Part shown: in pieces, positions 3,157-51,885 of the stretch
Layout of the letters: each line of letters opens with the position of its first letter
Position numbering within the stretch: position 1 is the stretch's first letter
Origin: Candidatus Nomurabacteria bacterium
GTDB taxonomy: Bacteria > Patescibacteriota > Minisyncoccia > Phycocordibacterales > UBA9973
NCBI GenBank assembly: GCA_003155695.1
Contig: PMDZ01000006.1
Location: 20,007 to 84,006, forward strand
Direction of reading: 5' to 3'
Length of the DNA stretch: 64,000 nt
Translations under genes and position numbers: made by a program
The notes under the pieces: generated by a model
The model's database searches: none
What the model was told of the DNA's origin: nothing
The model's input: the letters and a program-made list of their open reading frames with translations, nothing else

Positions 3157-3582
3157 ATGCTTTTTGAATCAGTCGACAAAGAATCAAAAAATATTGTTTT
3201 CGTTTATACGACATGTTCTGGTATTGAAGAGGCAAGGTCAATAGGGCTCTCTGCCGTCGAAGAGAAGCTGGCTATTTCTGTGGATTATTGGCCAGTTAAT
3301 TCTATATATCCATGGCAAAATGTTATTAAGGAGATAGACCAATGTATGCTCATTTTTTCGACCCAAAAAATATTGAGTGATAAATTAATGAAACATATAG
3401 AGGCAGAACATTCATATGAAGTCCCAATGGTCATACGCTCAGATATGAAGATAACCAACCAGCCTTATTCTTTCTGGGTAGATAATACATTATCAAACAA
3501 AGATAAATATCTTACCGAAGAAGAATATGAACACAAAAAGAAAGAAGAAGAGGGAGGATATCAATATGATAAACTGAAGTAA
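3157..3582 (+). CDS. cutA: CutA1 divalent-cation tolerance protein with an acidic/basic C-terminal tail
   Basis: VYTTCSGIEEARSIGLSAVEEKLAISVDYWPVNSIYPWQ...HSYEVPMVI matches the conserved CutA core (VYTTxP..EEA..IA..L.E.LAAC.N..P..SIY.W.G.I..HPYEVPE). Confidence 0.8.
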   Translation: MLFESVDKESKNIVFVYTTCSGIEEARSIGLSAVEEKLAISVDYWPVNSIYPWQNVIKEIDQCMLIFSTQKILSDKLMKHIEAEHSYEVPMVIRSDMKITNQPYSFWVDNTLSNKDKYLTEEEYEHKKKEEEGGYQYDKLK

Positions 3583-3616
3583 TTACGAATTACGAATTAA
3601 TAATTACGAATTCAGG
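3581..3616. repeat. AT-rich microsatellite, TTACGAA(T) x3, directly after the cutA stop
   Basis: The sequence aattacgaattacgaattaataattacgaattcagg read directly. Confidence 0.5.
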
Positions 3617-3625
3617 ATTAAAATT

Positions 3626-20555: not shown

Positions 20556-20650
20556 AAATAGCTCCTCTCAGAGGGTACGAAAATTTTTTACTAAAAATTT
20601 TCTCAGTTTTCGCTCCGTCGAGCTCAAAAGCCCCTCTGGTAGGACTATTT
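20556..20650 (+). repeat. Copy A of the ~92-bp structured interspersed repeat (subfamily 1)
   Basis: atagctcctctcagagggtacgaaaattttttactaaaaattttctcagttttcgctccgtcgagctcaaaagcccctctggtaggactat. It is homologous to 42392..42486 and, in reverse orientation, to 43737.., 44941.. and 47766.. Confidence 0.8.
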
Positions 20651-20755
20651 CATTTCCTCCCTTATAAGTGAAGCAGGATTATTGAAATTATGAGTCGCGT
20701 CGGAGCCCTTTAGGGTAAAGCGCGAATAATTTTAATAATCCTGTGGAACGGCTAC

Positions 20756-22267: not shown

Positions 22268-22387
22268 ATAAACATCTCCGCAAATCTTATCAATAAAAAA
22301 GTCCTCGGACGAGGGAGGACGAGGAGCCAGACATTTTTTCTTGAAAAGATTTGCTACGATTTAAAAATCTTCACGACTGTGAGGATT

Positions 22388-23449: not shown

Positions 23450-26400
23450 TTGTATATTATGAGAAAATTAAAGTTCCTAAAACTCCATTGGGCAAAACTT
23501 CTTTCGGTATTCTTTTTAATATTACTTCTCGGAGCTTATGCCCATATTTTCGCTATTGACCGAAAATATAATCCGGGAGAAATATTGAACCCGGATTGTT
23601 TTCCGGGAGAAACAAATTGCACGGTTGATATTACAACTGGAAGTTCACAGTGGACGACAAATGGGTCTAGTATTTATTACAACACAGGGAATGTTGGAGT
23701 AGGGGTGATTGCACCGACAGCACAATTACAATTTAAAGCTGGAACTACTACTGCTGGAACTGCTCCGCTTAAATTCACTGTCGGAACAAATTTAACTAAT
23801 GCCGAAGCCGGAGCGATGGAATGGAATGGAACAAATCTTTTTATAACCCAAACATCAGGTCCAACTAGAAAAACAATTGCTTATACCACGGATATTTCAG
23901 ATAGTTCACCTATCACTATTGTTGATAGTACCAATCTTGTTTCGACCGGACTTCAGGCAGCTGGACCCGTTCCCTATGGAACACAAGATGCGATTATCAT
24001 TGGTCGCTGGGCAGGATTCAATATGATTTCCGGTTATAATTCAATTTTTTTAGGCCTTGAAGCTGGTGCTCAAGCCAATGCCGAGTCCTCTAATTTTATA
24101 GGACATGGCGCTGGTAGTGGTACTACATCTCAATATTCAAACTTTTTGGGTCATTTTGCTGGTGAAAATTCTACCTCAGCTAACTATTCAAATTTTATTG
24201 GTAGTGATGCTGGAGCGTCTACTTCCGCTACTTTTTCAAATTTCATCGGTTTTGTTGCTGGCCGCGATGCAACTTCCGCTTCCTATTCAAACTTTTTTGG
24301 GTCTAGCGCTGGTTCTTCTGCTGCTAATGCCAGCAATTCAAATTTTTTTGGTGCAGGCGCTGGAGCGAACGCCACTAATGCATCTTATTCAAATTTAATC
24401 GGTTTCAGAGCCGGACTATCTCCCATTAGTATTAATAACAGTATCGGTGCCAATAATATAATTATCGGGACAAACATTTCATTACCAACCGCAACAGCTA
24501 ATTCGATGAACTTGGGTGGTGTTTTGTTTGCCACCGGAACTTATGCAACTACAACAGGTAATCCATCAACCACAGCCGTTGCGACGGGTAAAGTTGGAGT
24601 CGGAGTTGTTTCGCCATCGGCAAGATTGCAACTTGCTGCCGGAACCGCTTCCGCCGGTACTGCTCCACTTAAATTAACTGCCGGGACAAACTTGGGAACA
24701 ACCGAAGCTGGAGCGATTGAATACGACGGTTCCCATTTATATTTTTCGGCCACAAATAATGGAGACAGATATCAACTGGACCAACAAGCAGATGGAATAG
24801 TAAGTTCCCCATGGTTAGCAAATGGTTCTGATATTTATTATGATGGTGGCAATGTCGGCATTGGAAATGATTCACCGACATCAAAACTTGACATCAAACT
24901 TGATTTGACAGTATCTTATAATCAAAGTTTTTCCGGTAGTGGATTAAATGATGCCATATATTCAGGAACATATTCTGGATCAAATCCTCCAAACGCTGTA
25001 ATTGTTCAAATAGATGGCGAAGGCACACCTGATACTTTCACATATTACGATAACCATTCAGATTGTTCTTATCCTAATGGATTTTCAATTCCAATTACCG
25101 GCTCGGCGCAATTAGTTTGCGATGGTATTTCTATTACATTTACAAATATAACTGGGCATCACAGTGGAGATACTTGGACATATGAAATTAACAGTCCGGA
25201 TTCTAATCCGATTATTAAAATAAGTGATAACACGGGCAATAATTACTTTACTGTTAATGCGGTTGCCGATAAATCAAATTTCCTAGGTACTAATGCTGGT
25301 AATGGTGCTGTCTCTGCTCATGATTCAAACTTCATCGGTACATCTGCTGGTAATGGTGCTGTCTCTGCTCATGATTCAAACTTCATCGGTACATCTGCTG
25401 GTTATGGTGCAACCTCAGCTTCCGGCTCAAACTTCTTAGGCCTAAATGCCGGTATTTATGCTACTGGTGCCCATAACTCAAACTTCTTAGGTCCTAGTGC
25501 TGGTAATGGTGCCACCTCTGCCATCTTTTCGAACTTTATAGGTACTGTTGCTGGTCTTAGTGCCACCTCCTCTTCCTATTCAAATTTTATAGGTAATGGT
25601 GCTGGATATCAAGCCACTTCTGCTTCTTACTCAAACTTCTTAGGGATAAATGCAGGTAATGGTGCTACCTCTGCTATCAACTCAAACTTCTTAGGTCCTT
25701 GGGCTGGTTCTGGTGCTATCAATGTTTCTTATTCAAATTTATTTGGCTATGAGACGGGGATGTCTTTTACTGGCAACAACATTGGCTCCAACAACATAAT
25801 CCTCGGAACAAGTATTTCTCTACCTAATGCGGCAACCAATGCTATTAATTTAGGAGGAGTCATATTTGCAACAGGGACACATTCTGACACAAATGGCATA
25901 TCTATCATTGCTGAAGCTACTGGCAAAGTTGGTATCGGAGTCGTCTCACCGTCAGCTCGCTTACAACTTGCTGCCGGAACCGCTTCCGCCGGTACTGCCC
26001 CACTTAAATTAACTGCCGGTACAAATCTTTCGACAACCGAAGCCGGAGCGATTGAATACGACGGTTCCCATTTATATTTTTCGGCCACAAATTCCGGAAG
26101 CCGTTACCAACTCGACCAGCAAGGTGGAACTCCTTCTCCTATTACTATTGTTAACACCTCAAATCTTTTTTCAACAGGAATTAGTGCTGGAACTGGGGTA
26201 ACTTCTACAACTGATTCAAACTTTTTTGGTACTGATGCAGGTGATTCTGCTACTGGTGCTTTTGGTTCAAACTTTTTTGGTCCATCTGCTGGAATTTCAG
26301 CCCCGGATGCTTTTTACTCAAACTTTTTTGGTTTACAAGCTGGGGCAGGGGCTAATGATGCCAGCAATTCAAATTTTTTAGGTCATAATGCTGGTGCTAG

Positions 26401-27781
26401 TGCCATCAATGCCGCATTATCAAACTTCTTAGGACAATCCGCAGGTTTAGGAGCTGTAGGAGCTTCTGAGTCAAACTTCATAGGTGATTCTGCCGGATAT
26501 CAAGCCACCTCTGCTCATGATTCAAACTTCTTAGGAAATGCTGCTGGTCAAGGTGCTTCCCTTGCCTCTTACTCAAATTTATTTGGTTACCAATCGGGAA
26601 GGTCTTTCCCTGTAGATACTCCCACTAACAATATCGGTTCCAACAACATAATCATCGGAACAAATATTTCTTTACCTAATGCGACTGCAAATACCATGAA
26701 CTTAGGTGGAGTTCTTTTTGCCACAGGAACATATGCAACGACGACTGGCGACCCATCTATCACCGCAGTCTCAGGTGGCAAAGTCGGTATCGGCGTCGTT
26801 TCGCCATCATATACTCTCCAAGTCGGAAACTCATCTATCTCCGGAGTAGTCGCCCGATTTGAAAATAGTGTCGGAACTTGTGACATCAATCCTACTACCT
26901 CATCGGTTGGTTGTTCTTCCGACATAAGATTAAAGAAAAATATAACTACCCTCGATAATACAGAATTTGCTCTCTCAACTGTCCCTGATATGACAGGTAA
27001 ATCAACATTGGAAAAAGTTCTGAATCTCACTCCGGTCACATACAACTGGAATAGTGAAAGTGATACCGACCAGAAACACATTGGGTTCATCGCCCAAGAA
27101 ATGGAACAAATATTCCCTGATTTGGTCAGCACCGACCCGGTAACAGGTCTTAAGTCTCTTAGTTACGCAAACATGACGCCATACCTAGCCAAAGCCATAC
27201 AGGAGATGGATTTAAAAATTACAGATATTAATAATCAGGAATTAGAAAATAGTTGGAGGGATAGCATACTTGCTTGGTTTAAAAATACCTCAAATGGAAT
27301 TACTGAATTTGTCTCAAGTATTCTTCGAGCCAAAGATAAACTTTGTATCGGAGAGGGAAGTGACGAAGTTTGTATAACAAAGGAAGACTTATTGCAAATG
27401 AAAAATAATGCCGGACTAAACGCCGGAACAGCTGCCGTGCTTCCGACTGTTGATAACTCCGGCTCATCCGGGACAGATAATTCAACTGCTGGGACATCGG
27501 ATACTTCGGGAACAGGAGCATCCAATACCGGAACAACGACCGACACCACCGGTACGACAGGGGGGAACGACGGTAACAATACCGATACAACCGGAGGAAA
27601 CACAAATAACACAACCACAGATACATCCACCACAAATACTCCCGATACTGGAACGACGAATATAAATGCTGGTAATGATACGACCGGTAATGCAAGTGGT
27701 GATACGACAAATACGGATACAACCAACACTAATAACAATAATAGTGGAACGGATAATCAAAATAATGACCTCGGTAATTAA
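23450..27781 (+). CDS. Giant (1443 aa) secreted repetitive surface protein with a C-terminal phage-tail-fibre-type intramolecular chaperone (Peptidase_S74-like) domain and a T/N/G/D-rich tail
   Basis: A signal peptide, then three modules each starting with GKVG(V/I)GVVSPSARLQLAAGTASAGTAPLKLTAGTNL..TEAGAIEYDGSHLYFSATN. Each module is followed by 10-15 tandem 17-aa repeats (SNFIG..AG.GA.SA..). Near the C-terminus is CSSDIRLKKNITTLDN...LNLTPVTYNWN...HIGFIAQEMEQIFPDLV...LSYANMTPYLAKAIQEMDLKI, the S74 chaperone signature. Confidence 0.75.
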   Translation: MYIMRKLKFLKLHWAKLLSVFFLILLLGAYAHIFAIDRKYNPGEILNPDCFPGETNCTVDITTGSSQWTTNGSSIYYNTGNVGVGVIAPTAQLQFKAGTTTAGTAPLKFTVGTNLTNAEAGAMEWNGTNLFITQTSGPTRKTIAYTTDISDSSPITIVDSTNLVSTGLQAAGPVPYGTQDAIIIGRWAGFNMISGYNSIFLGLEAGAQANAESSNFIGHGAGSGTTSQYSNFLGHFAGENSTSANYSNFIGSDAGASTSATFSNFIGFVAGRDATSASYSNFFGSSAGSSAANASNSNFFGAGAGANATNASYSNLIGFRAGLSPISINNSIGANNIIIGTNISLPTATANSMNLGGVLFATGTYATTTGNPSTTAVATGKVGVGVVSPSARLQLAAGTASAGTAPLKLTAGTNLGTTEAGAIEYDGSHLYFSATNNGDRYQLDQQADGIVSSPWLANGSDIYYDGGNVGIGNDSPTSKLDIKLDLTVSYNQSFSGSGLNDAIYSGTYSGSNPPNAVIVQIDGEGTPDTFTYYDNHSDCSYPNGFSIPITGSAQLVCDGISITFTNITGHHSGDTWTYEINSPDSNPIIKISDNTGNNYFTVNAVADKSNFLGTNAGNGAVSAHDSNFIGTSAGNGAVSAHDSNFIGTSAGYGATSASGSNFLGLNAGIYATGAHNSNFLGPSAGNGATSAIFSNFIGTVAGLSATSSSYSNFIGNGAGYQATSASYSNFLGINAGNGATSAINSNFLGPWAGSGAINVSYSNLFGYETGMSFTGNNIGSNNIILGTSISLPNAATNAINLGGVIFATGTHSDTNGISIIAEATGKVGIGVVSPSARLQLAAGTASAGTAPLKLTAGTNLSTTEAGAIEYDGSHLYFSATNSGSRYQLDQQGGTPSPITIVNTSNLFSTGISAGTGVTSTTDSNFFGTDAGDSATGAFGSNFFGPSAGISAPDAFYSNFFGLQAGAGANDASNSNFLGHNAGASAINAALSNFLGQSAGLGAVGASESNFIGDSAGYQATSAHDSNFLGNAAGQGASLASYSNLFGYQSGRSFPVDTPTNNIGSNNIIIGTNISLPNATANTMNLGGVLFATGTYATTTGDPSITAVSGGKVGIGVVSPSYTLQVGNSSISGVVARFENSVGTCDINPTTSSVGCSSDIRLKKNITTLDNTEFALSTVPDMTGKSTLEKVLNLTPVTYNWNSESDTDQKHIGFIAQEMEQIFPDLVSTDPVTGLKSLSYANMTPYLAKAIQEMDLKITDINNQELENSWRDSILAWFKNTSNGITEFVSSILRAKDKLCIGEGSDEVCITKEDLLQMKNNAGLNAGTAAVLPTVDNSGSSGTDNSTAGTSDTSGTGASNTGTTTDTTGTTGGNDGNNTDTTGGNTNNTTTDTSTTNTPDTGTTNINAGNDTTGNASGDTTNTDTTNTNNNNSGTDNQNNDLGN
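25295..25396 (+). repeat. Perfect 51-nt tandem duplication (2 units) inside the giant surface-protein gene
   Basis: gctggtaatggtgctgtctctgctcatgattcaaacttcatcggtacatct occurs twice back to back, encoding AGNGAVSAHDSNFIGTS x2. Diverged copies flank it. Confidence 0.9.
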
Positions 27782-30700
27782 AATATTTTTCAAATATATA
27801 CTCCTCATTATTTTAATTGGCGGAGCTTTTGGGGTTTTTGCCTCGACTACCAACGGAACGATAGATGCGGGCAATCACACGGCGCTTCTTTGCATGAATG
27901 ATATTTGTTCCGTCACCACCAGAATAAATTTTTTGACGACCAACGGCAGAGCTGTACATGTCACAAATAGTGCGTTAACCGGTGAAATATGGTCGGAACA
28001 GGTAGGTTGGATAAATTTAAATCCGACAAATAGCGGGGTAGCCAATACAACGAGAGGTATTCTTTCCGGCGATGCTTGGGGAGAAAATGCTGGTTGGATA
28101 AATTTTGATCCCTATAATGGTGGAGTAGTCATAAATAATAGGGGTGAATTTGTCGGCTTTGCTTGGAGTCAAAATTACGGATGGATTAAATTTGATTGTA
28201 CTGTTGCGAATGCTTGTGTCAAAACTGATTGGCGCCCGAGTAATGATGGGGGTGGTGGAGGAGGGCCACCAGTGGTGGATATATGCCCAAATATTGCCGG
28301 GAATCAAACATTAATACCGGATGGTCTTGTTATCAATGCTCTTGGGCAATGTGTTTCCCCAGAACAATGTAATGTCCTAGATGGTGCACTTAAGCAACCA
28401 CTTGATGTCATGATTATAATTGACAAATCAGGCAGTATGGCTGGCACCAAACTGTCTCAAGCCAAAACCGCCGCTACAGCCTTCATCAATAATCTGGTTC
28501 TCGGTTCTGACCGGGTCGGATACGTCTCATATTCTACGACGGCAACACTCGAAAATGGGCTGACAACATCTTTTGATACAATTAAAGCAAAGATAGCAAG
28601 TACTGTATCAAATGGAAATACGAATATCGGAGGAGCGGCAAGAATTGCTTATCAAGAAATGTTGATCAATGGTCGGGCGGGAGTTAAGCATGTCATCATT
28701 ATTCTGACCGATGGACAAGCAAATGTCTCGGATGTTAGAACTCTGACCCCAAATCAATACGCGATCAATCAATCGGACCTGGCCAAACTCCGAGGCATGA
28801 TTGTTTATTCTATCGGACTGGGGACAGATGTAGATTCCGATCTTCTTTCTTCTATGGCAACCTTGCCAAGTTATTTTTATAATTCTCCGACTGGTAGCGA
28901 CCTTTCAAATATTTATCTGCAAATTGCCGCTATTGAATGTACCGCTGCCCCTTCAAAGGTTTTCGATACGGTTATTTATGATGCAAATAGAAATGGATTA
29001 TATGATACCAATGAAAGGGGATTAGCTGGATCTATTATCTCCTTAACAAGTAGTGATGGCAGTCAACAAACAAGAACGATGACAACGCTTGCCGACGGGA
29101 GTTTCCTTTTTGATGCTGTAACACCAGGGAACTATTCAGTCTGCAATACATCACCTTCGGGGATGTATCAAACCAAACCAGTTTCAAATGGATGTTTTGA
29201 TATAAGTGTTGTTCAAGGTATTAATGTCACAGATCTCAAATTTTTAGTTACTGGTAACCAACCATTTTGTTCGCTTAATCCAAATGACCCATCATGTGAT
29301 GTTTGCCCAAACATTTCAGGTATCCAAAGTACAATTCCGAATGGATTTACCATTAACTCAAGTGGTAATTGCGTTCCAACCCCAACATTCTGCGAACAAA
29401 ATCCCACCGACCCATCATGTAATCCAACATTCTGCGAAAACAATCCCAATGACCCATCATGTGATGTTTGCCCAAATATTTCAGGTACCCAAAGTACAAT
29501 TCCGGATGGATATACCTTGAACTCAAGTGGTAATTGTGTTCCGGCTCTAACATTTTGTGAACAAAATCCCACCGACCCATCTTGTATAACTCCAACGTTC
29601 TGTTCACTTCACCCGAGTGACTCAACATGTGTAGAGCCAAGTTTCTGTACACTTCATCCCACAGACCCATCTTGTATAACTCCAACATTCTGCACACTTC
29701 ACCCTAACGATCCGTCATGCACAACCCCATCATTTTGTGCTCTACATCCCACCGACCCATCTTGTATAACTCCGGCATATTGTGCTCTTCACCCGACTGA
29801 CCCATCATGTTCAACGCCGGAGATATTTTGTGCACTTCATCCGACCGACCCATCGTGCATTAATCCGACATTTTGTTCTCTCCATCCGACGAATATATTA
29901 TGTGTAATTAAAGATACAACATCCGGTATTTTAGAAACAATAAATGGAAATCTTAATAATACTATTACCGATGTAGCCAAAAATGTTGCCGAGGCAACTG
30001 AAATTATCTTTACAAATCCAGTCGGGAAAGTTGTCACTAAAATAGTTGAAACAACCGGAGCTGTCACTGGTGCAATCGGCATTGCCGGCTTAGTTTTCTC
30101 CGGACCAATTGCTCTGGCTGATGCTTTTCTAATTCCAATTCGGTTGTGGAGTCTTCTTCTTGCTCTGTTTGGAATCAAAAAAAGGAAAACTCCATGGGGT
30201 ACAGTTTATGACAGTGTCACAAAGCAGCCCCTTGACCCGGCATATGTCGTTTTACAGAATTTAGATGGCAAAGAAGTTGCGACTTCGATTACCGACCTTG
30301 ATGGTAGATATGGTTTTCTTGTTCCACCTGGAGCGTATAGAATTATCGCCAGAAAAACAAATTATGAATTCCCTTCAAAGAAATTACTTGATAGACAGAA
30401 AGATGAATTATATGATGATTTGTATTTCAATGAAATCATAGAGGTTAAAGAAGGGGGAATCATAACCCGTAATATCCCAATGGATCCGATTAAGTTTGAT
30501 TGGAATGAATTTGCCAAGCGCGATCGCAAATTAATGAAGTTCTACTCGAGACGCAGTCTTTGGGTTGCTCTTATTTCGGATATTCTGTTTTTCCTTGGTC
30601 TAATCATCTCTACAATTGCGACAATTATTACGCCAGTTACATACAATATCATCGTTCTCGTTGTTTATCTAGTTTTACTCATATTAAGAGGGACGATATT

Positions 30701-30968
30701 AAAACCTAGAATTTATGGTCTTGTAAATCAAAAAGAAAACAAAGATCCATTGTCTTTTGCTATCATGAGAATTTTCTTTGCCGGAAGTGACCATGAAATA
30801 GCACACAAAGTCACAGACCAAACAGGTAGGTATTATTGTCTTGTTCCAAACGGCAGGTACTATACAAAGATTGAGGTAAAAAACCCTGATGAAAGTTATA
30901 GTTTAGTTCATATATCAGATCCAATTGAAGTTAAAAAGGGGTATATAAACAAGAAATTTGAGGTGTAA
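27765..30968 (+). CDS. Large multi-domain surface protein (putative adhesin): tryptophan-rich GWI(N/K)F triple repeat, vWA domain, SdrD-B/Cna-B-like domain, a roughly 10-unit CxLHPTDPSC repeat array, a carboxypeptidase-regulatory-like domain and TM segments
   Basis: The start is taken at MTSVIKIFFKYILLIILIGGAFGVFA (27765) rather than the upstream ORF start 27666. The vWA MIDAS motif is DVMIIIDKSGSM...ILTDGQAN. The SdrD-B-like motif is DANRNGLYDTNERGLAGSI. The Cys repeat is TPTFCTLHPNDPSCTTPSFCALHPTDPSC... Confidence 0.7.
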   Translation: MTSVIKIFFKYILLIILIGGAFGVFASTTNGTIDAGNHTALLCMNDICSVTTRINFLTTNGRAVHVTNSALTGEIWSEQVGWINLNPTNSGVANTTRGILSGDAWGENAGWINFDPYNGGVVINNRGEFVGFAWSQNYGWIKFDCTVANACVKTDWRPSNDGGGGGGPPVVDICPNIAGNQTLIPDGLVINALGQCVSPEQCNVLDGALKQPLDVMIIIDKSGSMAGTKLSQAKTAATAFINNLVLGSDRVGYVSYSTTATLENGLTTSFDTIKAKIASTVSNGNTNIGGAARIAYQEMLINGRAGVKHVIIILTDGQANVSDVRTLTPNQYAINQSDLAKLRGMIVYSIGLGTDVDSDLLSSMATLPSYFYNSPTGSDLSNIYLQIAAIECTAAPSKVFDTVIYDANRNGLYDTNERGLAGSIISLTSSDGSQQTRTMTTLADGSFLFDAVTPGNYSVCNTSPSGMYQTKPVSNGCFDISVVQGINVTDLKFLVTGNQPFCSLNPNDPSCDVCPNISGIQSTIPNGFTINSSGNCVPTPTFCEQNPTDPSCNPTFCENNPNDPSCDVCPNISGTQSTIPDGYTLNSSGNCVPALTFCEQNPTDPSCITPTFCSLHPSDSTCVEPSFCTLHPTDPSCITPTFCTLHPNDPSCTTPSFCALHPTDPSCITPAYCALHPTDPSCSTPEIFCALHPTDPSCINPTFCSLHPTNILCVIKDTTSGILETINGNLNNTITDVAKNVAEATEIIFTNPVGKVVTKIVETTGAVTGAIGIAGLVFSGPIALADAFLIPIRLWSLLLALFGIKKRKTPWGTVYDSVTKQPLDPAYVVLQNLDGKEVATSITDLDGRYGFLVPPGAYRIIARKTNYEFPSKKLLDRQKDELYDDLYFNEIIEVKEGGIITRNIPMDPIKFDWNEFAKRDRKLMKFYSRRSLWVALISDILFFLGLIISTIATIITPVTYNIIVLVVYLVLLILRGTILKPRIYGLVNQKENKDPLSFAIMRIFFAGSDHEIAHKVTDQTGRYYCLVPNGRYYTKIEVKNPDESYSLVHISDPIEVKKGYINKKFEV
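29570..29890 (+). repeat. DNA-level array of about 39-nt repeats encoding the C-x-LHPTDPSC-ITPTF peptide units
   Basis: Near-identical units read from the sequence, e.g. ttctgcacacttcaccctaacgatccgtcatgcacaaccccatca and ttttgtgctctacatcccaccgacccatcttgtataactccggca. Confidence 0.7.
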
Positions 30969-31051: not shown

Positions 31052-31474
31052 ATGCCTACAATTAATCAATTGGTTCGAAAGAGCCGCAAAACAACCAAAA
31101 GAAAATCTAAAGCCGTAGCTCTTGCTCGCGGGTTTAATTCGATTAAGAACAAGCCGGTTTACTACCCGGCGCCGTTTAAGCGTGGAGTTTGTACGAAAGT
31201 TTCAACCACAACGCCAAAGAAGCCGAACTCAGCCCTCCGAAAAATTGCTCGTGTCAGACTGACAAACGGAATGGAAGTTACCGCCTATATTCCCGGAGAA
31301 GGGCACAACTTGCAGGAGCACTCAGTCGTTATGATTCGTGGCGGACGTGTCAAAGACCTTATTGGAGTTCGTTATCATATCGTCCGCGGACGTCTTGATA
31401 CGAGTGGTGTTGAAAAACGTCGCCAATCGAGAAGTCAGTATGGAACGAAAACACCTAAAGCTATAAAGAAATAA
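31052..31474 (+). CDS. rpsL: 30S ribosomal protein S12
   Basis: [12 protein letters not shown]...[10 protein letters not shown]...[38 protein letters not shown]. Confidence 0.95.
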
Positions 31475-31507
31475 TTAAGAATTAAGAATTAAGAATTAAA
31501 AATTACA
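31473..31507. repeat. AT-rich heptamer microsatellite (AATTAAG) x4 directly after the rpsL stop
   Basis: aattaagaattaagaattaagaattaaaaattac read directly. Confidence 0.5.
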
Positions 31508-31511
31508 AAAA

Positions 31512-31982
31512 ATGAGAAGAAGAATAAAAAATAAAAATATAGTAGAACCGGACATTGTCTATAATTCTCAAAAACTTGGGAAGTTTATTAACAATATAAT
31601 GCTAAACGGCAAAAAGGAAACGGCTCGAAAGTCCGTTTATAAAGCTTTTGATATCATTAAAGAAAAAACCGGCAATCCAAACCCTTTAGAAATATTTGAT
31701 ACAGCAATCAAGAATGCTGGTCCAATGGTGGAAGTTCGCTCACGCCGTATTGGCGGAGCCAACTACCAAGTTCCACGAGAAGTCCGACCGGAAAGACGCA
31801 CAGCTCTTGCCATGAGGTGGATTATTTTGGCGGCTCGAGGAAAGAAAGGAGCCCCAATCCATGAAAAGCTAGCTGAAGAATTGATTCTGGCCTCAAAAAA
31901 CGAAGGAGCAGCTGTCAAAAAGCGTGAAGATACCCACAAAATGGCGGAATCAAACAAAGCCTTCGCTCACTTCGCTTGGTAA
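31512..31982 (+). CDS. rpsG: 30S ribosomal protein S7
   Basis: Conserved S7 blocks (GKKETARK, RIGGANYQVP, ESNKAFAHFAW), in the position between rpsL and fusA. Confidence 0.95.
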   Translation: MRRRIKNKNIVEPDIVYNSQKLGKFINNIMLNGKKETARKSVYKAFDIIKEKTGNPNPLEIFDTAIKNAGPMVEVRSRRIGGANYQVPREVRPERRTALAMRWIILAARGKKGAPIHEKLAEELILASKNEGAAVKKREDTHKMAESNKAFAHFAW

Positions 31983-34136: not shown

Positions 34137-34158
34137 AAAAGCTGAAATGATTAAAAAA

Positions 34159-34194
34159 AGGAGGTGTTGGCGAAAGCAAACACCTCCTTTTTTA
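34159..34194 (+). terminator. Rho-independent terminator of the rpsL-rpsG-fusA operon
   Basis: AGGAGGTGTT-ggcgaaagca-AACACCTCCT followed by TTTTTT, a 10-bp perfect stem. A TATAAT box (tgtgctataatatg) follows, ahead of the FKBP gene. Confidence 0.85.
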
Positions 34195-39896: not shown

Positions 39897-40003
39897 GAAG
39901 GTAAATAAAGATTTTAAATATACAAAAATGTCCTTAATTATAAGGATATTTTTGTATATTTAGATTAATTTAAGTTTTAACTCTTCTATGGTATGATAGG
40001 CAC

Positions 40004-40798: not shown

Positions 40799-40810
40799 AA
40801 ATAACGAAAA

Positions 40811-40837
40811 AACCCTGCAAATGCAGGGTTTTTTTTG
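40811..40837 (+). terminator. Rho-independent terminator
   Basis: aaCCCTGCaaatGCAGGGtt followed by TTTTTTTT. Confidence 0.85.
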
Positions 40838-42391: not shown

Positions 42392-42486
42392 AATAGCTCT
42401 TCCCAAAGGGTACTCAAATTTTTTGCTAAAAATTTGCTCAGTTTTCGCTCCGTCGAGCTCAAAAGCCCCTTTGATAAGACTATTCT
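42392..42486 (+). repeat. Copy B of the ~92-bp structured interspersed repeat (subfamily 1), abutting the nusG stop codon
   Basis: aatagctcttcccaaagggtactcaaattttttgctaaaaatttgctcagttttcgctccgtcgagctcaaaagcccctttgataagactat. Confidence 0.8.
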
Positions 42487-43001: not shown

Positions 43002-43018
43002 ATAAAAATTATTTAACA

Positions 43019-43069
43019 TCTCAAAAGAAACAAACGAGAGCCATGGCTCTCGTTTGTTTCTTTTGAGAT
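43019..43069. terminator. 51-bp perfect palindrome between convergent rplK and efp (bidirectional terminator)
   Basis: atctcaaaagaaacaaacgagagccatggctctcgtttgtttcttttgagat, a 23-bp stem centred on CCATGG. Confidence 0.8.
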
Positions 43070-43736: not shown

Positions 43737-43827
43737 TAGTCTTATCAGAGGGACTTGGGAGCGCGACGGCGCGAGCACGAGGAATTTTTCAGCAGAAAAA
43801 TATCCGTGCCCTCTGGGAAGAGCTATC
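43737..43827 (-). repeat. Copy C of the structured interspersed repeat (subfamily 2, reverse orientation), between recA and efp
   Basis: Its reverse complement reads atagctcttcccagagggcacggatatttttctgctgaaaaattcctcgtgctcgcgccgtcgcgctcccaagtccctctgataagactat. Confidence 0.8.
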
Positions 43828-44940: not shown

Positions 44941-45037
44941 AATAGTTTTCCCAAAAGGGGCTTGTGAACTCGACGGAGTGAACACGGAGGAAATTTTTAG
45001 TAGAAAATTTCCGTACCCTTTTTTGAATACTATTTTT
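44941..45037 (-). repeat. Copy D of the structured interspersed repeat (subfamily 1, reverse orientation), upstream of recA
   Basis: aatagttttcccaaaaggggcttgtgaactcgacggagtgaacacggaggaaatttttagtagaaaatttccgtacccttttttgaatactat matches the reverse complement of copies A and B. Confidence 0.75.
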
Positions 45038-47765: not shown

Positions 47766-47858
47766 AATAGTCTTATTGAAGGGGCTTGTGAACTCGACGG
47801 AGCGAACACTGAGCTAATTTCTACCAAGAAATTAACGTACCCTTCAAGAAGAGCTATT
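47766..47858 (-). repeat. Copy E of the structured interspersed repeat (subfamily 1, reverse orientation), upstream of ftsK
   Basis: aatagtcttattgaaggggcttgtgaactcgacggagcgaacactgagctaatttctaccaagaaattaacgtacccttcaagaagagctattc. Confidence 0.75.
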
Positions 47859-47884: not shown

Positions 47885-47975
47885 ATAGCTCTTCTCAGAG
47901 AGCACGGATATTTTTCTACTGAAAAATTCCTCGTGCTCGCGCCGTCGCGCTCCCAAGTCTCTCTGATAAGACTAT
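47885..47975 (+). repeat. Copy F of the structured interspersed repeat (subfamily 2, forward orientation), flanked by a 12-bp inverted repeat (gagcagttccga / tcggaactgctc)
   Basis: atagctcttctcagagagcacggatatttttctactgaaaaattcctcgtgctcgcgccgtcgcgctcccaagtctctctgataagactat. Nearly identical to copy C, with compensatory changes (CAGAGAG/CTCTCTG versus CAGAGGG/CCCTCTG). Confidence 0.8.
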
Positions 47976-48072: not shown

Positions 48073-48903
48073 ATGGATAATAAAAAAGACATACAACAGA
48101 CAAGCATAAATACTTATGGACAACCAAATGTCTCTGACAGTAAATCATTAGTGGACAGGCCTGTTTATGAGTTTATCAACAAAAAGACAGAAAAATTAGT
48201 TACTGCTCTCTATATGGTTACCGACTGCATGGATACCGACGATGCTCTCAAAGGGAAACTTCGTCAGTTAGGTGTAGAATTACTGTCCGATATGTATAAG
48301 CTTTCAACCTTATCCCCAATGGACAAATATACTCGTATTTCTTCCTCTCTTGCCCGTATTGATGAGATACTTTCTTTCATTGAGATTACTTACACAATTG
48401 GTTTTATTTCGGAAATGAATACCGTCATTTTGAAGAAAGAGTTCACAATTTTAATAGAGGAGCTAGAATCTCACCAAAAAGAAAACAAGCATTTCACATT
48501 TACCTTAGACGAGAAGATATTTGATTTACCGGAACTTCAAATCGCAGGGAAAGATTCAGATTACAAAGGGCAATCATTTATAAAGGACAAAAGGACATCT
48601 TTTAATAGTATGTCCTTTATGGATAATAAAAGTCCTTTACAAAAATCCCAACCTAAAAGGACAATATCTCACGAATCAAATTTTGCCGATAGGCAAGAGA
48701 GGACGAATAAGATATTAGCTCTTATAAAAGAAAAGAAGGACTTGCCTACTGGAGAAGTAGGAGTTTCGATAAAAGACATCTCTCTTTCTTTTACAGACTG
48801 CTCGGAAAAGACAATTCAACGCGAACTGAACTCACTTGTCCAGAAAGGTCAACTCAAGAAAACCGGGGCTAAACGCTGGTCGCGATACTCTATTGTTATT
48901 TAA
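48073..48903 (+). CDS. Hypothetical protein with a C-terminal winged-helix-like DNA-binding region
   Basis: A 276-aa protein. The C-terminus ...LPTGEVGVSIKDISLSFTDCSEKTIQRELNSLVQKGQLKKTGAKRWSRYSIV resembles wHTH recognition-helix/wing patterns. The N-terminal domain is unrecognised. Confidence 0.35.
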   Translation: MDNKKDIQQTSINTYGQPNVSDSKSLVDRPVYEFINKKTEKLVTALYMVTDCMDTDDALKGKLRQLGVELLSDMYKLSTLSPMDKYTRISSSLARIDEILSFIEITYTIGFISEMNTVILKKEFTILIEELESHQKENKHFTFTLDEKIFDLPELQIAGKDSDYKGQSFIKDKRTSFNSMSFMDNKSPLQKSQPKRTISHESNFADRQERTNKILALIKEKKDLPTGEVGVSIKDISLSFTDCSEKTIQRELNSLVQKGQLKKTGAKRWSRYSIVI

Positions 48904-49013
48904 AAAAGACGACAATATTATTGTTTTGTGACGACGGGTGGGGGCGTGCCGTTCCGAGGTAACCCGAGGAATGGGGTTAAGGAGGAATAAAACAATAATA
49001 TTGTCGTCTTTTT
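48903..49013. repeat. 25-bp perfect inverted repeat (AAAAAGACGACAATATTATTGTTTT) enclosing a GC-rich 61-nt loop, starting at the stop codon of the preceding gene
   Basis: Arms at 48903..48927 and 48989..49013. The loop reads gtgacgacgggtgggggcgtgccgttccgaggtaacccgaggaatggggttaaggaggaat, roughly 62% GC in a roughly 35% GC genome. Confidence 0.7.
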
Positions 49014-49328
49014 CTGTTTTAGGCTATTTCAAGGAAACCCTTATATTCCCAGTTATCCACACCTTTTGGTCAAATCCTATGTATCTATTGCATATTATAA
49101 ACCTGGAGTATATAATATCTGTGTATATTGTTGCTGGTATTTTTTTACCATATGTGATAATATATAGTATCCCTGTGTACTTGTTTCTAATAAGCGCATT
49201 TGGGAAGAGAAGATCATTGAAAATAAAATACCTCTATATTCTAATACCAAGAAGGTAGTGGCCGTTTCGTTTTCACTGGTCGGATCCGTTTTGTTTCTTT
49301 TCAATTTTATTTTTCCTCAATCGCCCGA

Positions 49329-49700
49329 TTGATAGAGATTGGGTGAGTCTTACTTTGATAGAGGTGAGATTATCCCGTTGATAGAGACGGGTGATAAAAG
49401 AAAAATAAAAATAAAGATTTCAAAATGTGGTATCGGCCCTGTCGACAAGGCAGATATGCTTGTCTCGTCTTTTCTTTACTCTCTCGAAAAGAGATTCTTA
49501 AGAAGGGTAAAGGCAGGCAGTGTTTTTTAGTTTAGTTATTCAAGTAATTTATTTTTTGATACTTATTCCGTCATCATTTTTTTGATAGAGAAATTGTGGA
49601 GGGAAGAGAATAAAATAAATTATGAGATGGAAGGTTTATGTTTGTTATTTTACGGTTTTGAATTTTGTTACTTTTTCCATCGCAACTTTTTTGATAGAGA
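49329..49700 (+). promoter_or_regulatory. Five direct copies of TTGATAGAG in the roughly 960-bp noncoding region upstream of the S-layer-like gene
   Basis: Three copies lie at 26- and 23-bp spacing (49329, 49355, 49378), each followed by a GGTGA-containing tail. Further copies are at 49581 and 49692, each preceded by a T-run. They fall in different codon phases of any overlapping ORF, so they are nucleic-acid-level repeats. Confidence 0.5.
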
Positions 49701-49865
49701 GAAGTTATGGTTCAAGTTTCAGAATTTGGAAATTCAGTAAAAAAAGATTATTAATTATTAATTTCAATTCTTAATTATTAATCAAATACACACACATTAG
49801 TTTTTTTCCGGAGCACACAATTCATTATCAGTCGTCTTCCGGAATTAGTCGAAGCTAATCTAAAC

Positions 49866-51752
49866 GTGTATAAAATTATAAAGATTATGTTAAAAAAATT
49901 TTTAATCGGAGCAATAGCAGTAATAGCTTTTGGTGTTGTTATGCACACAGCTATGGCCGCTCTTGATTTCGGTCCTACAACTTTAAAAGTAGGTAGTACA
50001 GGAGTATTCGTAAGCACACTTCAGCAATTTGTTGGAGCAACAGCTGACGGATCTTTCGGTCCTATGACGAAAGCAAAGGTTATGGCATGGCAAGCAACAA
50101 ACGGCTTAACAGCTGATGGCGTGTTTGGTCCATTGTCAAAAGCTAAAGCTAACGCAACAGTTGGAACATATCCATCAGGTTGTTCGTCAACATTGGGTTA
50201 CAGCACAACAACCGGTTTACCATGTACAACAGCAGGAAATTATCCGGCAGGCTGTACTTCAGAAGTAGGATACTCTCCTACAACCGGAGCAAAGTGTGAT
50301 AGTTCAACAACTGGTGGTGGTTCCTCAGGTGGAGCTCTATCCGGTGGTGCAGGGGATGCAACTTTAACTCACTATTCAACCAGTGAGAAAAGTAAAATAA
50401 AAGAAGGAGATTCAGACGTTAAAGTTCTTGGCTTCAGAGTTGAAGCTTCAGATTCTGACATTGCTGTAAACAATGTTAAAGTTAAAATCGAAAACACTGA
50501 TGCACCTTCTTCTTCGTACAAAATCACAAAATACTTAGATTCAGTGGATATCTACCAAGGTTCAACAAAGGTTGGATCGGCAGATGCTGCTGACTTTACA
50601 AAAGCATCAGATGATTCTTACTCAAAATCAATTGCAGTTTCAAATGCAGTTGTTAGAGATGGGGACAAGGATCCTTTCTATGTAGTATTCAATGCTGTAG
50701 ATAGTATTGATTCAGAAAACTCTACTGCAAGTCTTACAGTAGGTGTAGAATCATTCCGCTTTACAGATGGATCAGGAGTTGTTACAACAGCAACACCCGA
50801 TCCAGCAGTTTCTAATGTAGTTACATTAGATGATTCATCAGATGTTCTAACTCTAAAGTCATCTTCAAATAATCCTGATGATGTAACTGTTACAGTTGAT
50901 GAAAACAATACTACAGATGAAGTATTAGCTCTTGCATTCAAATTGAAGGCAGGTTCTGATTCTTCAGATATCACACTTGATAAACTTCCAATTACTCTTG
51001 AAATAGCTGGTGCTGGAGCATCGGTTACTTCTTCAGAAAAAGTTATTGATTCTGTAGTTGTTAAGTTAGATGGTAAGGAAATCACAGCTGATGCTACTAA
51101 TACATCAATTAATAACGCAGGGTCAGATACAGCTCTATATACAGCTGACCTTTCAAATGAGGATATTACTATTGCTCAAGATGATACCCTTGAAGCAAAA
51201 GTTTATATAACTTTTGTTGAACAGGGTGGAACAGGTTCTGGTAAGAACTATACAGATGGCTCAACAGTTGTTACTGCTCATATAACAGGTACTGCTATTA
51301 CAGCAGAAAGTGCTAATGATGATACTATCAGTCCAACATCTGGTACACAAACAGGTGCTGCACTTACACTAAGTACATCTTCAATTACTTTGTCTGGTAT
51401 GAGTTGGACAACAACTTCAGGTTCATCTACTGGTACACTTGACTTCTACTTCTCATTAGAAGCTGGTGATAATGATGTTGAAAATCTTACAATAAGTGAT
51501 GTTGTTACATCAGAAAATACAACTAATGCTGGTGGTAAAGCAGCTGGTGATGCAGCAGGAGTTCTTACAAAGATATCTGGTGATGCAACAACAAACTCAA
51601 CAGGTAACTTTACAATCTCATCAGGTGATACTGCTAACTTCAGAATTAGATATACCACAACAGTTTCTGGTTCAGAAGTTCAGATTAAAACAATTAAAGG
51701 ACAAACAGTTCCTGATAACAAGCAATTGTCAGGTACATTTATTGCTCAATAA
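49866..51752 (+). CDS. Secreted cell-surface protein with an N-terminal peptidoglycan-binding (PG_binding_1-like) domain, Cys-pair repeats and a long S/T/D/A/V-rich beta region (S-layer-like)
   Basis: A signal peptide, then LKVGSTGVFVSTLQQFVGATADGSFGPMTKAKVMAWQATNGLTADGVFGPLSKAKA (a PGBD pattern), then three repeats YP(S/A)GC..(L/V)GYS.TTG..C, then about 450 aa of low-charge T/S/D/V-rich sequence. The gene has its own strong terminator. Confidence 0.6.
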   Translation: MYKIIKIMLKKFLIGAIAVIAFGVVMHTAMAALDFGPTTLKVGSTGVFVSTLQQFVGATADGSFGPMTKAKVMAWQATNGLTADGVFGPLSKAKANATVGTYPSGCSSTLGYSTTTGLPCTTAGNYPAGCTSEVGYSPTTGAKCDSSTTGGGSSGGALSGGAGDATLTHYSTSEKSKIKEGDSDVKVLGFRVEASDSDIAVNNVKVKIENTDAPSSSYKITKYLDSVDIYQGSTKVGSADAADFTKASDDSYSKSIAVSNAVVRDGDKDPFYVVFNAVDSIDSENSTASLTVGVESFRFTDGSGVVTTATPDPAVSNVVTLDDSSDVLTLKSSSNNPDDVTVTVDENNTTDEVLALAFKLKAGSDSSDITLDKLPITLEIAGAGASVTSSEKVIDSVVVKLDGKEITADATNTSINNAGSDTALYTADLSNEDITIAQDDTLEAKVYITFVEQGGTGSGKNYTDGSTVVTAHITGTAITAESANDDTISPTSGTQTGAALTLSTSSITLSGMSWTTTSGSSTGTLDFYFSLEAGDNDVENLTISDVVTSENTTNAGGKAAGDAAGVLTKISGDATTNSTGNFTISSGDTANFRIRYTTTVSGSEVQIKTIKGQTVPDNKQLSGTFIAQ

Positions 51753-51794
51753 TTGTATAACTAAATCTGGTTGATACGCCTTAAAATGTATTCA

Positions 51795-51825
51795 AAAAAC
51801 CACTCATTATATGAGTGGTTTTTTG
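51795..51825 (+). terminator. Rho-independent terminator of the S-layer-like gene
   Basis: aaaaaCCACTCATtatATGAGTGGtttttt. Confidence 0.85.
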
Positions 51826-51885
51826 TTATTTGAAAAGCTCCATTTCGTATAGATATTTTGTTCTTTTTCGGTTATACTCTTTAAT

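Follow-up and report, generated by a model that had tools for sequence, protein, structure and literature searches.

Correia repeat-enclosed elements of Neisseria, like the miniature inverted-repeat transposable elements (MITEs) RUP, ERIC, and BOX, are intergenic, ~100 to 150 bp in size, and built from inverted repeats of ~26 bp around a core; elements of this type are cotranscribed with their neighbors, form hairpins that can terminate transcription or be processed, and vary in presence from strain to strain. Correia elements occur in hundreds of near-identical copies and carry a TA target duplication. Repetitive extragenic palindromic (REP) sequences and bacterial interspersed mosaic elements (BIMEs), tagged by GTAG or CGTC, measure 20 to 40 bp, reach high copy numbers, and are linked to RAYT transposases; they lie at the 3′ ends of genes and are credited with termination and mRNA stabilization. 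The GC-rich palindromic clusters and hairpin elements of AT-rich organelle genomes, like the palindromic elements of Rickettsia, are usually numerous. Here, we describe a 111-nt hairpin at positions 48903 to 49013 of a 64-kb window (the whole stretch of DNA analyzed: 64,000 nt of contig PMDZ01000006.1, assembly GCA_003155695.1, positions 20,007 to 84,006) from a Candidatus Nomurabacteria genome of the Paceibacteria, within the candidate phyla radiation (CPR). In kind, the element is ordinary (a gene-end palindromic repeat or terminator of the REP, MITE, or Correia type) and is an undescribed sequence variant; the literature on hairpin repeats or terminators of CPR bacteria (Patescibacteria) yielded nothing specific. 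We lean toward reading it as a lone, diverged member of a lineage-specific hairpin-repeat family (here called the clamp-core family), lying in an insertion hot spot and probably working as a bidirectional terminator or insulator.

The element resembles Correia elements and other MITEs in its size, inverted-repeat layout, intergenic site, and variable presence, but, unlike Correia elements, it is single copy in the sequence searched, has no target-site duplication (TSD), and has arms that are not common to the related family. Like REP and BIME sequences, it is a short extragenic palindrome at a gene 3′ end, although the size, copy number, and RAYT link of REP sequences were not seen for it. With the organelle clusters and Rickettsia elements, it shares the character of a GC-rich hairpin module in an AT-rich, reduced genome, patchily present among relatives; the hosts and sequences differ, however, and the GC-rich core of the element is largely unpaired, being clamped by AT-rich arms. 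Finally, it agrees with bidirectional intrinsic (Rho-independent) terminators in its position after the stop codon, in the A-tract upstream and T-tract downstream, and in a stem bottom that abuts the T-tract, but its stem is 25 bp long and 80% A+T, and its loop is 61 nt, versus 3 to 8 nt in classical terminators. The features of the element and its immediate surroundings are as follows.

48073–48903 (+): upstream gene, 276 aa, from the list of open reading frames (ORFs); kept across Paceibacteria.
48903–48927 (+): left arm, AAAAAGACGACAATATTATTGTTTT, 25 nt, 100% complementary to the right arm and beginning with an A5 tract.
48928–48988 (+): G/A-rich core (the "loop"), 61 nt, 62% GC, with no match in Rfam.
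48937–48951 (+): 5′ core block, GGTGGGGGCGTGCCG; 13 to 14 of its 15 positions match the family block GGTGTGGGCG(C/T)GCCG, by fuzzy pattern search, MAFFT, and Smith-Waterman alignment.
48955–48968 (+): direct repeat, CGAG(G)-N6-CGAG(G); alignments place a CGAG...CGAG pair in the family cores as well.
48973–48985 (+): 3′ core block, GGGGTTAAGG (family, AGGGATAAGG), overlapping a perfect Shine-Dalgarno-like AAGGAGG at 48979–48985.
48989–49013 (+): right arm, ending in GTCGTCTTTTT, from the inverted-repeat search.
49009–49021 (+): T-rich tail, TTTTTCTGTTTT, whose first five T residues are the stem end; candidate terminator U-tract.
49053–49061 (+): DnaA-box consensus, TTATCCACA, at the downstream edge of the hypervariable spacer; invariant in 61 syntenic loci.
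49088–49116 (+): promoter-like pair, TTGCAT-17 nt-TATAAT, conserved over 20 aligned relatives; putative promoter.

The initial annotation had described a perfect 25-bp inverted repeat that encloses a 61-nt GC-rich loop and starts at a stop codon, and the repeat search confirmed this anatomy: the two 25-nt arms lie 61 nt apart, and the last base of the TAA stop codon (48901 to 48903) is the first base of the left arm (a 1-nt overlap). The right arm does terminate in T5, as had been noted, and CTGTTTT comes next; the bottom of the stem is GACGAC/GTCGTC, abutting the T-tract. At a GC fraction of 0.62, the loop stands well above the arms (0.20), the local 2 kb (0.35), and the window as a whole (0.37). 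The loop is non-palindromic, with 67% purines (28 of its 61 bases are G), and contains the Shine-Dalgarno-like or GGA motifs CCGAGG, CGAGGAA, and AAGGAGG; a small ORF (48938 to 49258), with no Pfam hit, begins in the loop and extends through conserved promoter-like DNA. For the complete hairpin, the folding energy is −49.8 kcal/mol (z = −6.1). Folded alone, the loop is no more stable than its shuffles (z = −0.9 on the plus strand and −1.8 on the minus strand), so the stability of the hairpin resides wholly in its arms. The 25-mer, at ≤3 mismatches, occurs only at the two arm sites in 64 kb (0 matches in 100 shuffles), and a 41-nt piece of the loop is likewise unique within the window at ≤3 mismatches.

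The spacer that holds the element, between the stop codon of the 276-aa gene and the DnaA box, was compared over 80 syntenic loci of GTDB genomes, to which exact-protein lookup added about 20 (labeled L001 onward). The distance from stop codon to DnaA box ranges from 0 to 343 nt across 61 loci and is ≤18 nt in eight. Filled spacers fold into long, often nested hairpins, whose outer arms are AT-rich and stop-codon-rich (TAGTAAGTAG..., AATTAAGAATTACGAATT, CTAGTTTCTAGT) and clamp classical GC-stem/T-tract terminators or other GC-rich modules; these modules are shared among genomes as a patchwork that does not track relatedness. The 111-nt element is found, identical, in same-species contigs only (L001 to L005, L113, and L008), and it is absent from 85+ other syntenic loci. 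Short-query BLAST of the element and of its loop against the window and ~540 kb of relatives returned nothing longer than 13 to 14 nt; further copies of the 25-mer or the loop, which the initial annotation had proposed seeking, are thus found neither in the 64-kb window nor in the loci of relatives.

Seven loci whose proteins are 70 to 73% identical to that of the window (L006, L111, L116, L118, L120, L125, and L126) have quite different spacer content. In L110 (73% protein identity), the spacer is 47 nt, its flanks are clearly homologous, and it contains one arm-like 24-mer, AAAAATTACAACAATTATCTTTTT; alignment models in which one arm is kept score 155 to 160, versus 141 when both arms are removed, and, on these alignments, the indel relative to L110 is the core plus one arm. 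As to the empty sites that the initial annotation proposed testing for, the spacer is essentially empty in about nine relatives. Because the spacers of relatives are empty or differently filled, the element is both dispensable and lineage specific. The spacer is an insertion hot spot: the hairpins and dispersed repeats that it holds differ between genomes, and in some it holds nothing.

L008, whose protein is 88% identical to that of the window, is otherwise a near-identical strain: 86 of the 93 substitutions that separate it from the window fall within 650 nt (48123 to 48771), and the flanks are almost identical. By its distribution, this divergence in the gene is a recombination mosaic; because it is limited to that interval, the identity of the element in L008 is uninformative on selection. 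Low-complexity, stop-codon-rich tracts that start at stop codons also occur elsewhere in the window (3573 to 3623 and 31465 to 31515), and such tracts form the outer arms of nested hairpins in the spacers of L009, L017, L024, L030, L048, L015, L076, and others; they comprise (G)AATTAAGAATTACGAATT repeats and CTAG-rich or TAGTAAG repeats. On the other side of the 276-aa gene, in the spacer toward ftsK, three loci carry a free-standing 84-aa GIY-YIG nuclease gene (L006, 3349 to 3603; L116, 442 to 696; L117, 180 to 434) that the corresponding spacer of the window lacks; possibly, this gene encodes a mobile endonuclease with a part in making the hot spot.

Of all spacers, that of L014 contains the best local match to the loop, and this match leads to the clamp-core family, in which a 21-bp AT-rich clamp (AAAATATTCTTTTTAAAAKCC) surrounds TAGGTGTGGGCGYGCCGGAGC, a variable segment with CGAG..CGAG, and GCGGAGAGGGATAAG. 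The conserved family core is GGTGTGGGCGYGCCG..CGAG..CGAG..AGGGATAAGG, with the blocks GGTG.GGGCG.GCCG and GGG.TAAGG. The canonical copies, in coordinates of their own loci, are as follows.

L014, 3910–3999: canonical copy.
L017, 2–89: canonical copy.
L023, 2816–2906: canonical copy.
L023, 3892–3981: canonical copy.
L045, 2810–2898: canonical copy.
L118, 1011–1101: canonical copy (identical in L119).

The family is thus found next to the 276-aa gene in six other genomes. Three of its copies share the post-stop spacer with the element, another two are immediately upstream of the gene, and the last is 2.9 kb away; all seven copies, with the element included, are oriented alike relative to the adjacent gene. 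The clamps covary, with double changes in 14 of 21 pairs among four sequences and in 16 of 21 among seven rows (an alignment fitted to the model, in which one row is a minus strand). Canonical copies at different sites of distant genomes are up to 95.6% identical, in genomes whose orthologous proteins are each 67 to 70% identical to the window's.

We regard the element, from sequence comparison, as likely homologous to this family; the similarity is significant in most tests, though not in all. It has the same AT-clamped layout and orientation and similar core blocks, but its core is 61 nt, versus 45 to 47 nt in the family. Its outer blocks match the family at 13 to 14 of 15 and at 8 of 10 positions, both CGAG repeats are present, and its 25-bp clamp lies flush against the core, as do the AT-rich clamps of at least 21 bp that characterize the family. 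A covariance model (R1), built from four canonical copies with the window excluded and searched with filters off, has its best hit in the whole window on the plus strand of the element (34.4 bits; E = 5e-6); because the minus strand of the element and another, unrelated perfect hairpin score lower (21.4 and 26.2 bits, respectively), ~8 to 13 bits of this score come from the core. Canonical members score 82 to 100 bits under the same model. MAFFT gives a gapless core alignment at 62 to 65% identity to four of the six copies (~64% to canonical cores overall). Smith-Waterman scores of the loop against the L118, L023, and L014 cores are 29 to 34, versus a shuffle mean of ~16: among 2,000 dinucleotide shuffles, none reaches the L014 or L118 score (p < 0.0005) and ~1 reaches the score of the first L023 copy. 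Over 138 spacer strands, the best score (34) exceeds those of all 300 shuffles (maximum, 32), and the composite motif appears in 0.1% of shuffled loops (p ~0.001). The family core pattern also has four hits in viral contigs, all in phages of 62 to 66% GC and all without a clamp.

What the hairpin does is suggested by its position and flanks: because A5 and T5 tracts flank it and it lies at a stop codon, a terminator role is plausible, and, going by its anatomy, the element most likely serves to stop transcription at the end of the upstream gene, not to encode a conserved RNA. As in intrinsic terminators, a stable stem-loop follows the stop codon and is itself followed by a U-tract (T5 plus CTGTTTT, 49009 to 49021). 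Transcription of the upstream gene would place a 25-bp stem at the 3′ end of the RNA (GACGAC/GUCGUC at the bottom, with A5 and U5-CUGUUUU flanks), where it would act as a factor-independent terminator and 3′-end protector. Because A and T tracts flank the stem, termination could proceed in both directions, and the stem would insulate the gene from the DnaA-box/promoter-like block located 40 to 75 nt downstream; no further hairpin lies between the element and that promoter-like block. The sequence of the core is probably not needed for this role. The initial annotation considered the stem to be far longer than those of normal terminators, a contrast that does not hold within this genome, where other gene-end hairpins have perfect or near-perfect stems of 13 to 26 bp with A/T tracts, as listed below.

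43018–43069: 52-nt perfect palindrome, 26 bp, no loop, between the convergent rplK and efp genes.
39915–39962: gene-end hairpin.
34154–34193: gene-end hairpin.
51793–51826: gene-end hairpin.
40806–40835: gene-end hairpin.

Long hairpins of this sort at gene ends thus appear to be the usual terminator style of the genome.

Several observations weigh against reading the element as a diverged family copy that terminates transcription. On the side of descent, stricter Smith-Waterman scoring shows no excess over shuffles, an nhmmer profile restricted to the core gives the loop an E value of 29, and the covariance-model score derives mostly from the stem; because the family was found by chasing the best match of the loop, selection bias enters as well. 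The arms agree with the family arms only at AATATT.TT.TT. Moreover, the arms are perfect (25/25) and sit beside a strongly diverged core, which simple decay leaves without explanation and which suggests selection or templated correction on the stem. On the side of function, the 61-nt loop far exceeds the classical 3 to 8 nt, and the arms are 20% GC, so the element lacks the short loop and GC-rich stem of a classical terminator, and a terminator scan omits it because the scan demands a loop of 3 to 8 nt. A terminator at this site is dispensable, given that the spacers of some relatives are empty. In both L014 and L023, the family copy comes after a canonical terminator, and canonical copies are without a clear T-tract, arguing that the family as such is not a terminator. 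Termination is, finally, something that we infer from anatomy only.

Among the other explanations, the one that survives best, though we consider it unlikely, is that the hairpin is a plain terminator that evolved in place, its palindrome having arisen by, e.g., inverted duplication after the stop codon around arbitrary GC-rich filler, with the likeness to the family being due to chance and composition. The single arm-like 24-mer at the otherwise empty L110 site fits such an origin, in that one arm may be ancestral and the other its inverted copy, and the higher scores of the one-arm alignment models agree with it; the failure of the stricter Smith-Waterman scoring and of the core-only hidden Markov model to find a significant link to the family likewise counts in its favor, and long perfect gene-end hairpins are common in the genome. 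It does not account for the source of 61 nt of G-rich filler, however, and it must set aside a core similarity that exceeds shuffles in several tests, one of them experiment-wide, a covariance model that prefers the plus strand by 13 bits, and the occurrence of three family copies, in like orientation, in exactly this spacer elsewhere.

Less probable again is a functional RNA or protein-binding platform, in which the clamp presents a single-stranded G/A-rich loop that binds a protein, the 3′ end of 16S rRNA, or a pyrimidine-rich RNA, and in which the family is a cis-regulatory or small-RNA class. The initial annotation had taken the GC-rich loop as a mark of structured RNA, a suggestion that fared poorly: the loop alone is no more stable than its shuffles and has no counterpart in the 85+ syntenic relatives. 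Rfam 15 has no match to the whole window at the gathering score and, at E ≤ 10, returned only noise between 47.6 and 50.0 kb (FasX, 19.5 bits versus a gathering score of 100); ARAGORN found 0 tRNA or tmRNA genes over 64 kb, and Rfam found nothing in the six loci of relatives with clamp-core copies. These searches bear out the earlier observation that signatures of tRNA, tmRNA, signal recognition particle RNA, and RNase P RNA are absent, and the covariance search that it had recommended for the loop matched no Rfam family. A conserved structured RNA is most likely not present at this locus, as the element occurs in same-species contigs only and its loop folds at z = −0.9 and −1.8. In favor of this reading, the family cores are strongly conserved while the arms covary, the core of the element is non-palindromic and purine-rich, all seven copies share one orientation relative to the adjacent gene, and the 95.6% identity of canonical copies contrasts with the 67 to 70% identity of their genomes' orthologous proteins, each to that of the window. 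The orientation bias may equally reflect the direction of replication, however, because all loci are syntenic, and copies that agree closely across distant genomes could be due to recent spread as readily as to constraint; furthermore, copies vary in site (5′ of the gene, 3′ of the gene, or elsewhere), Rfam is without a match, and the element itself is only ~64% identical to the canonical cores and missing from most relatives. By default, annotation pipelines should not call GC-rich islands in AT-rich CPR genomes RNA genes.

We give slightly less credence still to an active or recently active MITE with 25-bp terminal inverted repeats (TIRs), mobilized by a transposase encoded elsewhere in the genome. 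The perfect TIRs and the 111-bp size are those of a MITE, near-empty sites exist in relatives, and other hairpins of the window are clearly dispersed (L120 has, at another locus, a 98.7% identical copy of the one at 22280 to 22354). However, searches of the 64 kb, of ~540 kb from the loci of relatives, of metagenome contigs, and of viral contigs revealed no further TIR copy. The exact 20-mer of the arm had two single-arm chance hits among metagenome contigs (one coding and one chloroplast-like), in a weak search that did not return the source contigs themselves; the 17-mer of the arm had 19 single-arm chance hits in viral contigs, where two loop patterns had 0 and 2 chance hits; and BLAST against plasmids and phages in distant mode gave nothing significant. 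The flanks (...TTATTTA and CTGTTTT...) contain no direct repeat abutting the arms, i.e., no TSD, and the arm-like sequence kept in L110 is ill-suited to the clean insertion of a TIR-bounded unit. Of the proposal that this is a miniature element with 25-bp TIRs, then, the likeness to a dispersed family with AT-rich clamps and G-rich cores stands, whereas the second 25-mer and the TSD are lacking.

Least credible is a role at the DNA level, in which a cruciform or a hairpin on single-stranded DNA would affect the binding of DnaA, the activity of the promoter, or events linked to replication. The invariant DnaA box does lie 40 nt downstream of the element, several relatives have inverted DnaA-box duplicates as hairpin arms, and the minus strand of the family core looks, post hoc and by eye, like a DnaA box interrupted by a GC-rich insert (CTTATCC...CACACC). 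Against this, the GC skew shows no switch here (so that the region is not an origin by that measure), relatives can do without the element, and the split box is a poor fit to the window copy (TTAACC...CCACCC).

Returning to the element as one gene-end hairpin repeat among others, we found that the window contains further repeats of comparable build. Two gene-3′-end hairpins (20674 to 20743 and 22280 to 22354) have AT-rich arms around a GC-rich core, as the 111-nt element does. The latter has a 98.7% identical copy in the ftsK-gene spacer of L120 (1208 to 1282) and a 96.7% identical one in L006, genomes whose orthologs of the 276-aa protein are 70 to 73% identical to the window's, and L032, L044, and L126 have additional copies of this type, which may face either way. 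Of the former, halves recur in L126 and in L116/L117, so that both belong to dispersed families. The identities suggest a recent spread of these two elements between genomes. A third repeat, of ~87 nt, has six copies in the window, all of them intergenic.

43740–43826 (+): ~87-nt repeat.
47885–47971 (−): ~87-nt repeat.
47772–47856 (+): ~87-nt repeat.
42394–42479 (−): ~87-nt repeat.
20559–20643 (−): ~87-nt repeat.
44954–45021 (+): ~87-nt repeat.

This repeat, which is also found in many of the relatives' loci, is predicted by RNAalifold from 19 copies to form a three-way junction (P1, AGAGGG/CCCUCU; P2, GCUC-GACG-GAGC; and a long AU-rich P3 with an AGCA loop), 16 of 20 predicted pairs remaining paired through double changes; it has no match in Rfam and could be an undescribed structured RNA or mobile element of the Paceibacteria. 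The 111-nt element was considered as a member and rejected: iterated nhmmer finds the six window copies and not the element, even at E ≤ 10, although the element has a weak local resemblance to two of the copies (p ~0.005). Elsewhere in the window, two very large ORFs (1,443 and 1,100 aa; 23450 to 30968) consist of 51-nt and 45-nt tandem repeats and probably encode repetitive surface proteins.

The 276-aa gene upstream of the element is divergent from ftsK, with recA, efp, rplK, and nusG further upstream, and always lies between two repeat-rich spacers. Its product has 1,125 homologs, those named by source being from Candidatus Paceibacterota or Nomurabacteria, and it has no hit in Pfam or NCBIfam. 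The AlphaFold 2 model (predicted local distance difference test, 67) comprises an N-terminal four-helix bundle, a disordered linker, and a C-terminal winged helix; in Foldseek, the bundle resembles the "S23 ribosomal/23S IVS (intervening sequence) protein" fold and Avd, the accessory protein of diversity-generating retroelements (DGRs), with template modeling scores of 0.8 to 0.87 (target-normalized) and E = 7e-4. The Avd-like fold suggested that the element might be the 3′ hairpin of a DGR target gene, associated with an initiation of mutagenic homing site; this candidate was rejected, as there is no template-repeat/variable-repeat pair and no reverse transcriptase domain in the neighbor genes. 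No direct repeats touch the region from 48.0 to 49.1 kb.

Downstream of the spacer, every genome examined has the same order: the DnaA box (consensus across relatives, TTATCC(A/C)CA), the TTGCAT-17-TATAAT pair, 430 to 920 nt of conserved noncoding sequence, and the next long ORF. The promoter-like pair was missed by a consensus scan because its −35 hexamer agrees with TTGACA at only 3 of 6 positions. In the window, the conserved noncoding region (~810 nt, 49053 to 49865) has hairpins with covarying stems and the highly conserved blocks GATCATTGAAAAT, CTAATACCAAG, and GTGGTATCGGCCCTGTCGACAAGGCAGATATGCTTGTCTC (49427 to 49468), without an Rfam hit, and the next gene, with a start at 49866 or 49887, encodes a secreted PG_binding_1 protein. 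Within this region, TTGATAGAG occurs five times, always on the plus strand (49329, 49355, 49378, 49582, and 49691) and only in this stretch of 370 nt, whereas the expectation for the window is 0.5 occurrences. Judged by eye, three copies or more, beginning with the first three, sit in the loops of small hairpins with differing stems (CCCGAT...ATTGGG and CCCGT...ACGGG). The motif is found again in relatives, and its copies look like repeated candidate binding sites for a protein or RNA. L009, L017, L030, and L048 carry, immediately upstream of the DnaA box, an inverted duplicate of that box with its flank, creating a perfect hairpin with DnaA boxes as its arms, e.g., GGGATAACTGGCGGGCCTTCGGCTCGCCAGTTATCCCC. 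A chromosomal origin (oriC) at the DnaA-box region was considered and rejected on the GC skew.

Taken alone, the 111-nt element is of minor note, being another gene-end hairpin that relatives can do without, and the repeat families are more interesting than the element itself. A CPR genome of the ~1-Mb class, expected to be streamlined, holds several structured intergenic repeat families, concentrated in hot spots that flank the conserved 276-aa gene to either side. Some of these repeats match one another across genomes at 95 to 99% identity, although the orthologous protein of each such genome has only ~70% identity to that of the window. The clamp-core elements, the 87-nt repeat, and the 810-nt leader with its five TTGATAGAG hairpin loops all appear to be undescribed. 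More speculatively, and we hold this to be a doubtful extension, the hairpins with AT-rich clamps and G-rich cores (the element, the clamp-core family, the 22280 and 20674 types, and possibly the 87-nt repeat) may form an undescribed class that spreads among reduced CPR genomes and homes to gene ends without a recognizable transposase or TSD, being either a new kind of nonautonomous mobile element or functional RNAs whose conserved unpaired cores bind a cellular partner. As functional RNAs, they would be without any representative in Rfam; as mobile elements, they would make a tractable marker for following the exchange of DNA between uncultivated Paceibacteria.

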